Below are positions 5,017 to 10,701 of a stretch of 64,000 nt of DNA, piece by piece. The stretch spans positions 42,837-106,836 of IMG/VR virus record IMGVR_UViG_3300012943_000031, one strand, 5' to 3'. A program made the translations under genes and the position numbers. This DNA is from a virus. The notes below the pieces were generated by a model that was not told the DNA's origin, searched no databases, and saw only the letters and a list, made by a program, of their open reading frames with translations. How positions within the stretch are numbered: the first letter of the stretch is position 1; each line of letters begins with the position of its first letter.

Positions 5017-5048
5017 TTTGGAATTTGCCAAATTACTTCGTATATTTG
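5017..5048 (+). promoter_or_regulatory. Bacteroidota housekeeping promoter of tRNA operon 1
   Basis: TTTG(5017)-N20-TATATTTG(5041). Confidence 0.85.
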
Positions 5049-5052
5049 CATT

Positions 5053-5142
5053 ATGAATTTACATCGTACACATACATGGTTTACTACTTGTCCCCAATGT
5101 CCATTTGGAGGAGAAGGGTGTTGTATGTGTGAAAATAAATAA
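5053..5142 (+). CDS. Leader peptide 1 (MNLHRTHTWFTTCPQCPFGGEGCCMCENK)
   Basis: ATG 4 nt after the -7 box; codons 4-18 use only H,R,T,W,F,C,P,Q, the tRNA set downstream; overlaps antiterminator arm. Confidence 0.85.
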   Translation: MNLHRTHTWFTTCPQCPFGGEGCCMCENK

Positions 5143-5162
5143 GTTTTTTCTTATTCATACTT

Positions 5163-5209
5163 AAAAACCCTTCAGTAATCCAATCACAACTGAAGGGTTT
5201 TTTCTTTTT
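5163..5209 (+). terminator. Attenuator terminator 1
   Basis: AAAAACCCTTCAGT/ACTGAAGGGTTTTT stem + T tract, 2 nt before tRNA-Pro; 5' arm alternatively pairs with GAAGGGT(5113) in the leader. Confidence 0.85.
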
Positions 5210-5211
5210 AT

Positions 5212-5287
5212 CGGGTAGTGGGAGAATGGTTAGTCCACTATGTTTGGGGCATAGAAAATGTCAGTTCGAGTCTGATCTACCCGACCA
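5212..5287 (+). tRNA. tRNA-Pro(TGG)
   Basis: CGGGTAG/CTACCCG acceptor, CTATG-TTTGGGG-CATAG anticodon arm, CCA. Confidence 0.93.
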
Positions 5288-5293
5288 AATAAT

Positions 5294-5369
5294 GCCAGTG
5301 TAGCACAACAGGTAGTGCAGTACTCTTGTAAAGTAAAGGTTGCAAGTTCGATTCTTGTCACTGGCTCCA
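5294..5369 (+). tRNA. tRNA-Thr(TGT)
   Basis: GCCAGTG/CACTGGC, loop CTTGTAA, CCA. Confidence 0.93.
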
Positions 5370-5377
5370 AATTATAT

Positions 5378-5451
5378 GGCCGTATAGCCAAGTGGTAAGG
5401 CACATGTCTGCAAAACTTTGATCCCCAGTTCGAATCTGGGTACGGCTTCCA
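5378..5451 (+). tRNA. tRNA-Cys(GCA)
   Basis: GGCCGTA/TACGGCT, loop CTGCAAA, U73, CCA. Confidence 0.92.
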
Positions 5452-5454
5452 TAT

Positions 5455-5529
5455 GGTGCACTAACTCAATGGTAGAGTTCCTCCCTGAAAAGGAGGGTGT
5501 TCCCAGTTCAAGTCTGGGGTGTACCACCA
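5455..5529 (+). tRNA. tRNA-Phe(GAA)
   Basis: CCTCC-CTGAAAA-GGAGG, CCA. Confidence 0.93.
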
Positions 5530-5532
5530 CAT

Positions 5533-5603
5533 ACGGGTATGGTGAAATGGTATCATAACAGTCTCCAAAACTGCTGTTCAGGGTTCGAATCCTTGTACCC
5601 GTG
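5533..5603 (+). tRNA. tRNA-Trp(CCA)
   Basis: ACGGGTA/TACCCGT, loop CTCCAAA, G73, no encoded CCA end. Confidence 0.92.
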
Positions 5604-5655
5604 CTTTTTCTTATTCCCACATTTCCCTGAGAAATCAAACTTGTGGGTTTCGTAT

Positions 5656-5729
5656 TGTCTCATGGTGTAATGGCAACATAAGAAGCTTTGACCTTCTTGT
5701 TTCAGGTTCGAGCCCTGATGGGACATCCA
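5656..5729 (+). tRNA. tRNA-Gln(TTG)
   Basis: AGAAG-CTTTGAC-CTTCT, U1-A72, CCA. Confidence 0.92.
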
Positions 5730-5734
5730 AATAT

Positions 5735-5805
5735 TACCTTATAGTGTAATGGTAACACACCACTCTCTGAAAGTGTTGTTTAAGGTTCGAGTCCTTATAA
5801 GGTAA
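5735..5805 (+). tRNA. tRNA-Gln(CTG)
   Basis: TACCTTA/TAAGGTA, loop CTCTGAA. Confidence 0.9.
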
Positions 5806-5807
5806 CT

Positions 5808-5881
5808 GTGACTATAGCTTAATGGTTTAGAGCCCTTGGTTGTGACCCAAGGTAGTGTCAGTTCGAATCTGATTAGTCACC
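5808..5881 (+). tRNA. tRNA-His(GTG)
   Basis: GTGACTA/TAGTCAC, CTTGG-TTGTGAC-CCAAG, C73. Confidence 0.92.
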
Positions 5882-5886
5882 TAAAT

Positions 5887-5957
5887 GCCCTATTAGTATA
5901 ATGGAAGTATCTGAGAATACGAATCTCAGGGTAGGAGTTCAAATCTTCTATAGGGTT
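5887..5957 (+). tRNA. tRNA-Arg(ACG)
   Basis: GCCCTAT/ATAGGGT, TGAGA-ATACGAA-TCTCA. Confidence 0.88.
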
Positions 5958-5990
5958 CTGGTACACTTCTTGCTATATGAAAGTATGGTA

Positions 5991-6161
5991 ATGAAAGGTA
6001 AAAATAAACTAGAAAGAATGGAATTACGTGCTGCTAAAAGATTTAACAGACGTTCTAAGAAAATAAAATTCCATCTTACTAATGATTGGAGTTGGACATT
6101 TCCTATCCCTAAAGAGGGAATTCCAAAAATAGTTGAAGAAATATTTGGAAACGGCAAATAA
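5991..6161 (+). CDS. Small basic hypothetical protein (MKGKNKLERMEL...)
   Basis: 3' part of the 5901 ORF lying outside tRNA-Arg. Confidence 0.45.
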   Translation: MKGKNKLERMELRAAKRFNRRSKKIKFHLTNDWSWTFPIPKEGIPKIVEEIFGNGK

Positions 6162-6175
6162 ATGTCGTATCTTTG
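6144..6175 (+). promoter_or_regulatory. Bacteroidota promoter of tRNA operon 2
   Basis: TTTG(6144)-N20-TATCTTTG(6168). Confidence 0.85.
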
Positions 6176-9087: not shown

Positions 9088-9098
9088 TGAAAGTATAC

Positions 9099-9170
9099 GG
9101 TACTGTAGTTTAATGGCAAAACAGCAGTCTCTAAAACTGAATAGTGTGGGTTCGATCCCCATCAGTACCA
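9099..9170 (+). tRNA. Amber suppressor tRNA (anticodon CTA)
   Basis: GGTACTG/CAGTACC, GCAGT-CTCTAAA-ACTGA, GGTTCGATCC, A73. Confidence 0.88.
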
Positions 9171-9187
9171 CAATTAAACCAAATACA

Positions 9188-9664
9188 ATGAGTAAGTAGA
9201 TGGAAATCCAGAAACTGGTAACTGTGACCAGAACTGACTTACCTGAAGGTTATCAGGCAGTACAGTCAACACATGCAGCAATTGATTTTGTTTTTGAACA
9301 TCCTACACGTGCTGGCCCTTGGCATAAAAACAGTAATACGTTAGTGATGTTAACAGTAAAGGACACGAAAGGTCTCCTTCACCTAATGAGGAAGTGTGAT
9401 TATCTGTCTATAGCTTATACTGTTTTCAGGGAACCAGATATTGGTAACCAAATCACAGCCATCTGTATGGAGCCTCATGAGGAGGTTTACAAGATGGTTA
9501 GTAAGCTACCTTTATTAATACCAAAAACACAATCAAATGAATACCAAGACACTATCAATCAAAGCCAAGTTAGCCAACCAAGTGAGAACAATCTTCTACA
9601 AGAAGTGGGATGTGACGAAAATCACAGAACACGAACAGAAGAGGATGTTGAGAGAGTTAGCTGA
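9188..9664 (+). CDS. Peptidyl-tRNA hydrolase 2 (Pth2)-like protein; in-frame TAG at codon 4 (MSK*MEIQKL...), alternative start 9200
   Basis: KLVTVTRTDL..GYQAVQSTHAA, FREPDIGNQITAI, SKLPLL motifs of the PTH2 family. Confidence 0.75.
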
Positions 9665-9812
9665 GTTAACTAAAGAAGTTCACTATGAGTTAAATCTCTA
9701 CAAGGGTAAGAGAAGAGATAAGAAAATACTCTTAGAAAAGAGGTTAGAAGCCCCTCAAACAAAGACCATGAAGAAGAAACTGAAAGGTCACAGAAAAGAA
9801 ATTTCAAAATAA
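9537..9812 (+). CDS. Basic hypothetical protein
   Basis: 91-aa Lys-rich ORF with A-rich start context. Confidence 0.5.
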   Translation: MNTKTLSIKAKLANQVRTIFYKKWDVTKITEHEQKRMLRELAELTKEVHYELNLYKGKRRDKKILLEKRLEAPQTKTMKKKLKGHRKEISK

Positions 9813-9813
9813 A

Positions 9814-9845
9814 TTTGGAAATCGTGAAAAAAGGTTGTATATTTG
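9814..9845 (+). promoter_or_regulatory. Bacteroidota promoter of tRNA operon 3
   Basis: TTTG(9814)-N20-TATATTTG(9838). Confidence 0.85.
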
Positions 9846-9849
9846 CAGT

Positions 9850-9897
9850 ATGAAAATAACATCAACATATAGTTCCTTGTCGTTACTCTATAGCTAA
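9850..9897 (+). CDS. Leader peptide 3 (MKITSTYSSLSLLYS)
   Basis: ATG 4 nt after the -7 box; codons 7-15 only Y,S,L, the tRNA set downstream. Confidence 0.85.
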   Translation: MKITSTYSSLSLLYS

Positions 9898-9950
9898 TAG
9901 AGCCGGGAATACTATGTGTCAAAAATAACTATCTTGATTTTACATAACAT

Positions 9951-9978
9951 GACCCGGTATTTCTATACTGGGTTTTTT
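9951..9978 (+). terminator. Attenuator terminator 3
   Basis: GACCCGGTAT-TTCT-ATACTGGGTT + T tract; 5' arm alternatively pairs with GCCGGG(9902). Confidence 0.85.
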
Positions 9979-9985
9979 GTTTTAT

Positions 9986-10059
9986 GGCATTGTGATGGAA
10001 CTGGGATACATACCTGTCTTAGAAACAGTTTTTTGTGGGTTCGAATCCCACCTTTGCCA
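9986..10059 (+). tRNA. tRNA-Leu(TAG), short variable arm
   Basis: Loop CTTAGAA, GTGGGTTCGAATCCCAC; two acceptor mismatches. Confidence 0.8.
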
Positions 10060-10062
10060 CAT

Positions 10063-10141
10063 GCTCCTATGGTGGAACGGTATACACGTCAGACTTAAAA
10101 TCTGATCTTAATTGATGAGAGTTCGAATCTCTCTAGGAGCA
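10063..10141 (+). tRNA. tRNA-Leu(TAA)
   Basis: GCTCCTA/TAGGAGC, TCAGA-CTTAAAA-TCTGA. Confidence 0.92.
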
Positions 10142-10142
10142 C

Positions 10143-10368
10143 AACAACCATAAACTATCGAGTTACAACTTGCTGGGTACTTACTGGGTACTTGCGGGGT
10201 GTAATTAGGAAACTCAGCACATCTCTGCTTAAAATGGGAGGACTAGCAATCCGTTATTACCAAAGAGGATGAAACTCAAACAGACTAAGAAGGTGAGCAG
10301 TTCTATGAAGTCGGGTTAGAGGATTAGACAAATGATAGTTGATACAGAAAGCTGGTTATTGGGTTGTT
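10143..10368 (+). ncRNA. rnpB: Minimal RNase P RNA
   Basis: P1 AACAACC/GGTTGTT, P2 AACTATCG/TGATAGTT, P3 hairpin, CR-I AGGAAACTCAGC pairing with CR-V ACAGAAAGCTGGTTA (P4 with bulged U), CR-IV TAGACAAATGAT. Confidence 0.8.
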
Positions 10369-10373
10369 AAATT

Positions 10374-10463
10374 GGTGGGCCCCAGATGACAGAGGTACTC
10401 CGTCTTGAAAACGGCTATAACGGTAATCATTCCGTTGTAAGGGTTGGACTCCCTTGCCCACCT
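10374..10463 (+). tRNA. tRNA-Ser(TGA), atypical D/T loops
   Basis: GGTGGGC/GCCCACC, CCGT-CTTGAAA-ACGG, long variable arm, T loop TTGGACT. Confidence 0.75.
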
Positions 10464-10470
10464 CAAATAA

Positions 10471-10560
10471 GGAGAATAGACGAATATTGGTTTGTCGTAA
10501 CTACCTGCTAAGTAGTTCTGTGTAACAGCAGTAAGAGTTCAATTCTCTTATTCTCCGCCA
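10471..10560 (+). tRNA. tRNA-Ser(GCT)
   Basis: GGAGAAT/ATTCTCC, ACTAC-CTGCTAA-GTAGT, variable arm, G73, CCA. Confidence 0.92.
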
Positions 10561-10563
10561 ATA

Positions 10564-10638
10564 TGGGATAGACAGCAGGGCACTGTAGACGGTCTGTAAA
10601 ACCGAACTATGTAGAGTTTCGAATACTCCCTATCCCAC
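10564..10638 (+). tRNA. tRNA-Tyr(GTA), atypical
   Basis: TGGGATAG/CTATCCCA, CGGT-CTGTAAA-ACCG, GAGT-TTCGAAT-ACTC. Confidence 0.72.
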
Positions 10639-10675
10639 ATTAACTTTTCTTTAACAGAAAAAAGTCTTACCTTTG

Positions 10676-10701
10676 TAGCCTCCTTCGGGAGGTTATTTTT
10701 T
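10676..10701 (+). terminator. Terminator ending tRNA operon 3
   Basis: TAGCCTCC-TTCG-GGAGGTTA-TTTTTT. Confidence 0.85.

Follow-up and report, generated by a model that had tools for sequence, protein, structure and literature searches.

Compensation for codon usage, late-gene demand and escape from tRNA-cleaving defences have been proposed as reasons why phages carry transfer RNA (tRNA) genes. The locus described here raises the question of whether such genes could be switched on by the very shortage that they would relieve. It lies in a 64,000-nucleotide (nt) stretch, hereafter the window, of record IMGVR_UViG_3300012943_000031, a 107-kb uncultured virus from a soil metagenome (G+C content 36.5%). 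The tRNA region of the window, 5017-10701, is encoded on the + strand throughout and holds 26 tRNA genes by ARAGORN, 25 of the 26 confirmed by Rfam, grouped in three blocks. We consider it likely, judging from sequence comparison and folding, that the blocks are governed by three ribosome-mediated transcription attenuators of the trp/his/ilv type, one per tRNA operon. If the codons of each leader mirror the tRNAs downstream of it, the phage would gauge decoding speed for each class of codons and answer with the matching tRNAs.

Putative leader peptides and the tRNA blocks they precede

Each block begins in the same manner. As the initial annotation had proposed, a predicted host-type promoter, a short open reading frame (ORF) and a terminator directly before the first tRNA stand in order at all three (dG, predicted free energy):

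5017-5048, +: promoter 1, TTTGGAA-N17-TATATTTG; the leader-1 ATG lies 4 nt past the -7 box
5053-5142, +: leader ORF 1, 29 codons, MNLHRTHTWFTTCPQCPFGGEGCCMCENK; sensor core HRTHTWFTTCPQCPF at 5062-5106
5163-5202, +: intrinsic terminator 1, dG -17.5 kcal/mol; its 5' arm ACCCTTC can pair with 5113-5119 instead
5212-5958, +: tRNA block 1 (Pro, Thr, Cys, Phe, Trp, Gln-TTG, Gln-CTG, His, Arg-ACG; ARAGORN, Rfam)
6144-6175, +: promoter 2, TTTGGAA-N17-TATCTTTG, followed by a 27-nt A-rich 5' untranslated region (UTR)
6203-6277, +: leader ORF 2, 24 codons, MYLINMIVDRINGAEKSGSGLLLS; sensor core INMIVDRINGAEK at 6212-6250
6306-6337, +: intrinsic terminator 2, dG -19.2 kcal/mol
6345-8503, +: tRNA block 2 (Lys, Val, Arg-TCT, Asn, Met, Met, Gly-TCC, Gly-GCC, Glu, Asp, Ile-TAT, Ile-GAT, Ala; ARAGORN, Rfam)
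9814-9845, +: promoter 3, TTTGGAA-N17-TATATTTG; the leader-3 ATG lies 4 nt past the -7 box
9850-9897, +: leader ORF 3, 15 codons, MKITSTYSSLSLLYS; sensor core YSSLSLLYS at 9868-9894
9951-9974, +: intrinsic terminator 3, dG -13.0 kcal/mol
9986-10638, +: tRNA block 3 (Leu-TAG, Leu-TAA, an RNase P-like RNA at 10143-10368, Ser-TGA at ~10371-10462 as a weak call, Ser-GCT, Tyr-GTA at 10565-10638)

For comparison we used 12 uncultured phage contigs that were reached through array-flanking proteins and whose marker is 39% to 78% identical to that of the window (they are given by L numbers below where they must be told apart). Most of the 12 carry the same three blocks in the same order, and together with the window phage they supply a set of 33 attenuators from 13 phages.

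The promoter motif ahead of the blocks, TTTGGAA-N17-TAT(A/C)TTTG, is of the Bacteroidota type. The Bacteroidota sigma-A pattern (-33 TTTG / -7 TAnnTTTG), searched as TTTG-N17-21-TAnnTTTG, occurs 7 times in the 64 kb against 1.9 expected, and four of these seven matches precede leaders 1-3 and a suppressor tRNA described further below; they are predicted promoters. In the window and in most relatives with a recognisable box, the ATG of leaders 1 and 3 follows the -7 box by 3-5 nt, which would make their mRNAs leaderless or almost leaderless. The 5' UTR of leader 2 is A-rich and 25-31 nt long.

The amino-acid content of the leaders corresponds to the tRNAs that follow them. All 8 amino acids of block 1 (P, T, C, F, W, Q, H, R) and none from outside it make up the 15 residues of the leader-1 core; the 13 residues of the leader-2 core likewise include all 10 amino acids of block 2 (K, V, R, N, M, G, E, D, I, A) and no others. 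The leader-3 core is 9 residues long and uses L, S and Y only, the Tyr-GTA gene of block 3 being itself called, like Ser-TGA, only with relaxed ARAGORN thresholds (Leu-TAG, Leu-TAA and Ser-GCT appear at the standard call). Jointly the three sets comprise all 20 amino acids, with Arg in two of them. On each of these points of composition the initial annotation proved accurate. Its cores had been chosen after the fact, and we therefore ranked ORFs by their longest in-set run, a measure independent of that choice. Compared with the 882 ATG-initiated ORFs of 8-80 amino acids from the two strands of the window, each leader outranks all others in length of in-set run for its own block (rank 1 of 882), and in the relatives the leader ranks first in 28 of 31 cases, among ~200 short ORFs.

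Between phages the cores change in order and keep their composition. Leader-1 cores include HRTHTWFTTCPQCPF, RQHTWFTFTQCPF, QRHTWPTFTQCTT, THTTCPQWFTPT and RQWHTPTCTQCPF, leader-2 cores INMIVDRINGAEK, IVVDNGMARGIEKDG, IVNIAIMNGGDRNEK and NIIAMVKGNIEDRN, and leader 3 in the relatives invariably has 9-12 consecutive residues that are all L, S or Y. Drift of order with retained composition argues for selection on the codons present and not on the peptide sequence. A close variant from other metagenome runs has no listed difference in leader 2 or its terminator, as against nine in the 300 nt upstream.

A conserved micro-ORF with the motif G-C-G-C-G-(G)-K(P)K lies just 5' of leader 1; in the window it occupies 4948-4995 (+) and reads MTILKGGGCGCGGKK. 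It recurs in L001 (~2475-2537), L007 (~8750-8842), L050 (11744-11884) and L042 (12914-13021). An in-frame fusion joins it to leader 1 in L050, and leader 2 of L042 has the motif added on. The phages differ at synonymous positions of the micro-ORF, which indicates that it is translated.

Terminators, antiterminators and the modelled position of the ribosome

Every leader of the window can form the classical 1:2 (sensor codons with a downstream segment), 2:3 and 3:4 pairings, of which 1:2 and 3:4 come from minimum-free-energy folds. Alternative pairings able to destroy the terminator, which the initial annotation had also described, are present at each leader. The segments that compete with the terminators are:

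5067-5131, +: anti-antiterminator hairpin 1, formed by sensor codons 5067-5089 with 5114-5131; it sequesters the antiterminator strand GAAGGGT (5113-5119)
6217-6231 with 6263-6276, +: 1:2 helix of attenuator 2; antiterminator strand GCTCTGG at 6255-6261
9865-9919, +: anti-antiterminator hairpin 3; 9865-9873 pairs with 9911-9919 and encloses the antiterminator strand GCCGGG (9902-9907)

The terminators themselves, in all attenuators examined, have a dG of -10.7 to -23 kcal/mol and a U tract. Terminators 1-3 of the window end 8-12 nt 5' of the first tRNA, and this distance is 8-16 nt in the 12 attenuators measured, which leaves no room for a separate promoter. A terminator stands directly 5' of the first tRNA in all relatives examined except three with inserted homing-endonuclease ORFs.

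The pairing between leader and terminator is maintained as both change. In 33 of 33 attenuators the leader segment that pairs best with the terminator 5' arm nearly repeats the 3' arm and lies a median of 6 nt past the end of the core, and the 2:3 pairing beats dinucleotide shuffles at p<0.05 in 28 of the 33. Terminator stems vary widely between phages, and the upstream copy of the 3' arm changes in step. When phages were permuted within each leader class (20,000 trials), cognate leader-arm duplexes averaged -11.5, -17.4 and -11.8 kcal/mol by class against -9.2, -11.2 and -7.1 kcal/mol for permuted ones, and the observed cognate mean energy was reached in 0 of 20,000 permutations in each class (p<=5e-5 per class). 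For 11 leader-2 sequences the RNAalifold consensus was the antiterminator itself, and 5 of its 9 pairs are changed on both sides. Across the leader-2 1:2 helix and terminator, 7 pairs show compensatory changes and 78% of cells are paired, compared with at most 57% when the partner is slid; 6 of 10 pairs of the leader-1 terminator are compensatory. For leader 3, whose terminator stems are unrelated between phages, covariation was assessed through per-sequence duplex tests.

To place the ribosome on these structures, we folded the nascent transcript up to the terminator with a footprint of ~28 nt forced unpaired, moving the A site to each codon in turn; the partition-function calculation used the transcript before the 3' arm of the terminator is made, in place of equilibrium folds with the complete terminator. 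The antiterminator strand is ~20% free on average when no ribosome is placed. An A site in the core frees it, and once the A site is one or two codons past the core the ribosome covers it. Over the 33 attenuators, 153 of 164 permissive codons specify amino acids of the leader's own block, compared with 362 of 720 codons at other positions, and control counts with the sets of the other two blocks were 7 of 164 and 8 of 164; the leaders being homologous, these counts are not independent of one another. The geometry of permissive codons explains where the in-set runs start and stop.

Taken in this light, each attenuator would work as follows. Transcription would start from the host-type promoter, and a ribosome would translate the short leader. 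A ribosome that moves past the sensor codons undelayed would cover the antiterminator strand; with no ribosome present, that strand would be held in the hairpin with the sensor codons. In either event the terminator would form and RNA polymerase would halt 8-12 nt before the first tRNA. Where matching charged tRNA is scarce, the ribosome would stall at a sensor codon, melt the hairpin and leave the antiterminator strand outside its footprint, free to pair with the 5' arm of the terminator, and the polymerase would proceed into the tRNA genes. Since each operon encodes the tRNAs that read the sensor codons of its leader, a block would be on while its own products are short and off as they accumulate. 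The result would be a demand-driven feedback covering all 20 amino acids over three channels. Leader translation, stalling and read-through in vivo are what we infer from these features; the four-segment design, the covariation, the positions of the stall codons, the drift in residue order and the split of Arg codons described below all support the reading as leader-peptide attenuation with which the initial annotation began.

Codon matching across relatives and competing explanations

The correspondence reaches the level of isoacceptors. The initial annotation had paired CGT with Arg-ACG, AGA with Arg-TCT, and ATA and ATT with both Ile tRNAs, and these assignments are correct. Throughout the set, the Arg codon is CGT, CGC or CGA in 8 of 8 Arg-containing leader-1 cores, readable by Arg-ACG (inosine), and AGA in 9 of 9 leader-2 cores, readable by Arg-UCU. 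Arg codons outside the cores are mostly AGR, and Arg usage in phage genes is 61% AGA and 30% CGT. The leaders also contain codons that are rare in the phage (GTG, GGG, CCC, CTC, TCG), which would have to be read through wobble by the U34 tRNAs of the block; known attenuators also employ poorly read codons.

Related arrays bear out in part the expectation that leader composition should track operon content. It does so for Arg in L047, where both Arg tRNAs are missing from blocks 1 and 2, both cores lack Arg, and the Arg-TCT gene stands alone 2.3 kb downstream of block 3. It does so for Cys in L007, a relative with tRNA-Cys only whose permissive codons are Pro-Cys-Cys; L046, also a tRNA-Cys-only relative, adds two out-of-set codons (I, Y). 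Tracking of Arg is statistically weak alone: Arg is absent from 3 of 11 leader-1 cores, and the tRNA is absent in one of those three phages.

Several observations weigh against attenuation by leader peptides or narrow its scope. The expected tracking failed in four relatives: block 2 of L012 lacks Met, Gly, Glu and Asp tRNAs and that of L038 lacks Val, Arg and Asn tRNAs, with the residues retained in both leaders, and leader 1 of L043 and L044 has no Arg despite the presence of Arg-ACG. One Leu occurs within the leader-2 core of L040 and L043. Tracking from leader to tRNA across the relatives is therefore imperfect and not proven; we regard it as suggestive. The relatives are moreover homologous, and their agreement cannot count as separate support for the match in composition. 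Translation of leaders 1 and 3 would require initiation on mRNAs that are leaderless, or almost so. Inside block 2, a -7-box-like TATATTTG (~7030-7043, within 7016-7046, +) lies 4 nt ahead of the ATG of an RNaseH-like ORF, and this internal promoter-like box could drive the distal part of block 2 (Gly to Ala) independently and without attenuation. Equilibrium folds with the whole terminator let the terminator win in several constructs, including attenuator 1 of the window, and give a clear switch in about half of the constructs only; the switch must therefore act kinetically, in the manner of the trp operon. Finally, the tRNA array of crAss001 has no such leaders and starts after a 4-codon mini-ORF with no terminator, which indicates that the design is not general to crAss-like phages.

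Three other explanations have to be set against leader-peptide attenuation by matching tRNAs. The attenuators could be real and yet sense amino-acid supply or general translation stress, the composition match only ensuring that the leaders can be read by the phage tRNAs; any slowing of elongation, be it through starvation, uncharged tRNA or ribosome-targeting toxins, would then open the operons. Classical attenuators do sense charged tRNA and not tRNA as such, the leaders of L012 and L038 retain residues whose tRNAs are lost, and an extra tRNA operon of Anabaena is induced by general translational stress (PMC8421152). We nevertheless hold this explanation to be unlikely, as a stress sensor needs neither three leaders that partition the 20 amino acids in the way the operons do nor the CGN/AGA split, and as L047 points to tRNA-specific matching.

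The other two deny that the ORFs act as sensors. One takes them for functional micro-proteins (for example a CxxC...CxxC zinc knuckle in ORF 1), with the hairpins as their terminators, the tRNAs arising from constitutive read-through and the match coincidental or inherited. Indeed CPQC...C..C occurs in leader 1 of the window and several relatives, and the order of the peptide is fairly conserved there. The Cys pattern is however lost in L041 (MKKVQRHTWPTFTQCTTVKGVLYT) and in L047, which has one Cys, while both keep an in-set core, and the zinc-knuckle reading of leader 1 was rejected on this ground. Residue order in leader 2 is shuffled with its composition retained, and a micro-protein leaves unexplained both the covariation of antiterminator and terminator and the fact that in-set residues end exactly where the ribosome begins to mask the antiterminator strand; we find this account highly improbable. 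Equally little credence attaches, in our judgement, to the idea that the ORFs are untranslated and that an element acting purely as RNA, for instance a riboswitch-like leader that binds a protein or tRNA, produces the amino-acid pattern as a by-product of nucleotide constraint. Nucleotide conservation of leader 1 is high in parts (ACACATACATGGTTTAC is identical in three phages), but the signal is tied to the reading frame and the amino-acid sets, synonymous positions vary (CGT/CGC/CGA; ACA/ACC/ACT/ACG) with the amino-acid set retained, Rfam gives no T-box or other riboswitch match, and the leader ATG sits at a fixed 3-5 nt past the -7 box in most relatives with a recognisable box.

Known attenuators and neighbouring elements

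Attenuation of the tRNA blocks by their leader peptides would resemble that of enterobacterial operons such as ilvGMEDA (Ile/Val/Leu), thr (Thr/Ile), trpL, hisL, leuL and pheL. There, too, regulatory codons abound in a short ORF, the 1:2, 2:3 and 3:4 helices exclude one another, an intrinsic terminator stands just 5' of the regulated genes, and a stalled ribosome frees the antiterminator, as is proposed here from the sequence. These operons differ in that biosynthetic enzymes are regulated there and tRNAs here, so that the sensed charged tRNA would depend directly on the product; in that the phage sensors cover 8, 10 and 3 amino acids, mostly with 1-2 codons each, and not runs of a single residue; and in that two of the three leaders here appear leaderless, in a phage whose host is probably a member of the Bacteroidota. 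The E. coli pheST leader is an attenuator in which a component of the translation apparatus is controlled by leader-peptide attenuation on cognate codons. Unlike the phage blocks, pheST is a cellular gene for a synthetase and senses one amino acid.

Mycobacterial leaderless short ORFs with poly-Cys make downstream expression Cys-responsive through their codon content (bioRxiv 10.1101/834739) and are comparable to the leaders of the Cys-only relatives L007, L046 and L049; they are reported to regulate protein-coding operons and are not known to act on tRNA genes. The nearest published item is the trn array (L-array) of Anabaena sp. PCC 7120, a supernumerary, horizontally mobile tRNA array that is off by default and turned on by impaired translation (PMC8421152), its control being ascribed to the repressor protein TrcR (PMC10272220); leader peptides, attenuators and terminators are mentioned in neither paper. 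T-box riboswitches likewise couple tRNA charging to terminator read-through by a cis-acting leader, but they bind uncharged tRNA directly, need no translation and precede synthetase and amino-acid genes. A cmscan search of 4500-11500 at E<=1 gave no match to T-box (RF00230) or to the leader families of Rfam (Trp_leader, His_leader, Thr_leader, Leu_leader and others), its only matches being tRNAs, weak Plastid-ycf2 antisense matches and a weak RNase P match. In a full-text literature search we found no report of leader-peptide control of tRNA genes.

We think it probable that the locus represents a self-regulating tRNA supply, in which three multivalent attenuators partition the 20 amino acids and the phage tops up only the block that is being decoded slowly, that it is the first ribosome-mediated attenuation of tRNA genes, and that it is conserved in uncultured phages of a large clade from soil and freshwater, which it may help to ride out host tRNA loss from anticodon nucleases or host shut-off. 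As to biological purpose, codon-usage mismatch, late-infection demand and host tRNA loss through defence nucleases would each fit, an anti-defence role being conjecture. If the mechanism is true, leader-peptide attenuation would reach non-coding RNA genes, sensors covering 8-10 amino acids together, leaders that are themselves leaderless and probably Bacteroidota hosts, in which such attenuation has been little studied. The leaders could also serve as compact natural sensors for tRNA availability. The 368-aa marker protein beside the array has 231 homologues in public data, and the mechanism may accordingly be widespread. No close relative at the DNA level was found in the INPHARED phage set, and a search of genome contigs with the marker alignment gave no match. 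Scanning for the pattern ACACAYACATGGTTYAC recovered a known relative and three chance matches only; among the listed matches to TATGATAGTGGATA, those inspected lay out of frame inside protein genes with no tRNAs nearby.

Further elements lie within and around the blocks:

6784-6935, +: tRNA-like element of 152 nt inserted in block 2
7044-7511, +: RNaseH-like ORF inserted in block 2
7797-8195, +: HNH ORF inserted in block 2
8506-8532, +: terminator closing block 2
10675-10696, +: terminator closing block 3

The 152-nt tRNA-like insert stands between the two Met tRNA genes, which are adjacent in the relatives. It has acceptor-like ends (CTGTAAGG, CCTTACAG) and a class-II-like D arm; ARAGORN calls it with the intron option only (anticodon CTA, 74-nt intron), and it has no Rfam tRNA match. 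The HNH ORF is missing from the close variant, which joins 7780 to 8214. Homing-endonuclease ORFs also occur in L038, L039 and L041, either between the attenuator terminator and the first tRNA or within a Leu tRNA, and the arrays appear to be hot spots for mobile endonucleases.

The RNase P-like RNA of operon 3 (10143-10368, +; 226 nt) is a full-length, sub-threshold match to RF00373, scoring 28.1 bits (E 1.4e-6) in a 281-nt search and 19.9 bits in a 7-kb search. It retains the motifs AGGAAACUC, UAGACAAAUG and ACAGAAAG and is missing at the corresponding position in L001, L012, L013 and L042. It is possibly a minimal RNase P RNA that the phage encodes and co-regulates with its tRNAs.

Between blocks 2 and 3, in the interval 9056-9664 (+), an amber-suppressor tRNA (anticodon CTA; 9099-9171, +) has its own promoter with no leader and no terminator. 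It is followed by an ORF for a PTH2-like peptidyl-tRNA hydrolase (9200-9664, +; Pfam PF01981, E 6.7e-7), ahead of which ATG AGT AAG TAG stands in frame at 9188-9199; no in-frame TAG was found among the 23 large ORFs of the window. Outside the window, two lone tRNA genes lie on the opposite strand, Glu-TTC (G000:C1:6832-6903, -) and Cys-GCA (12547-12620, -), both with no leader or terminator architecture.

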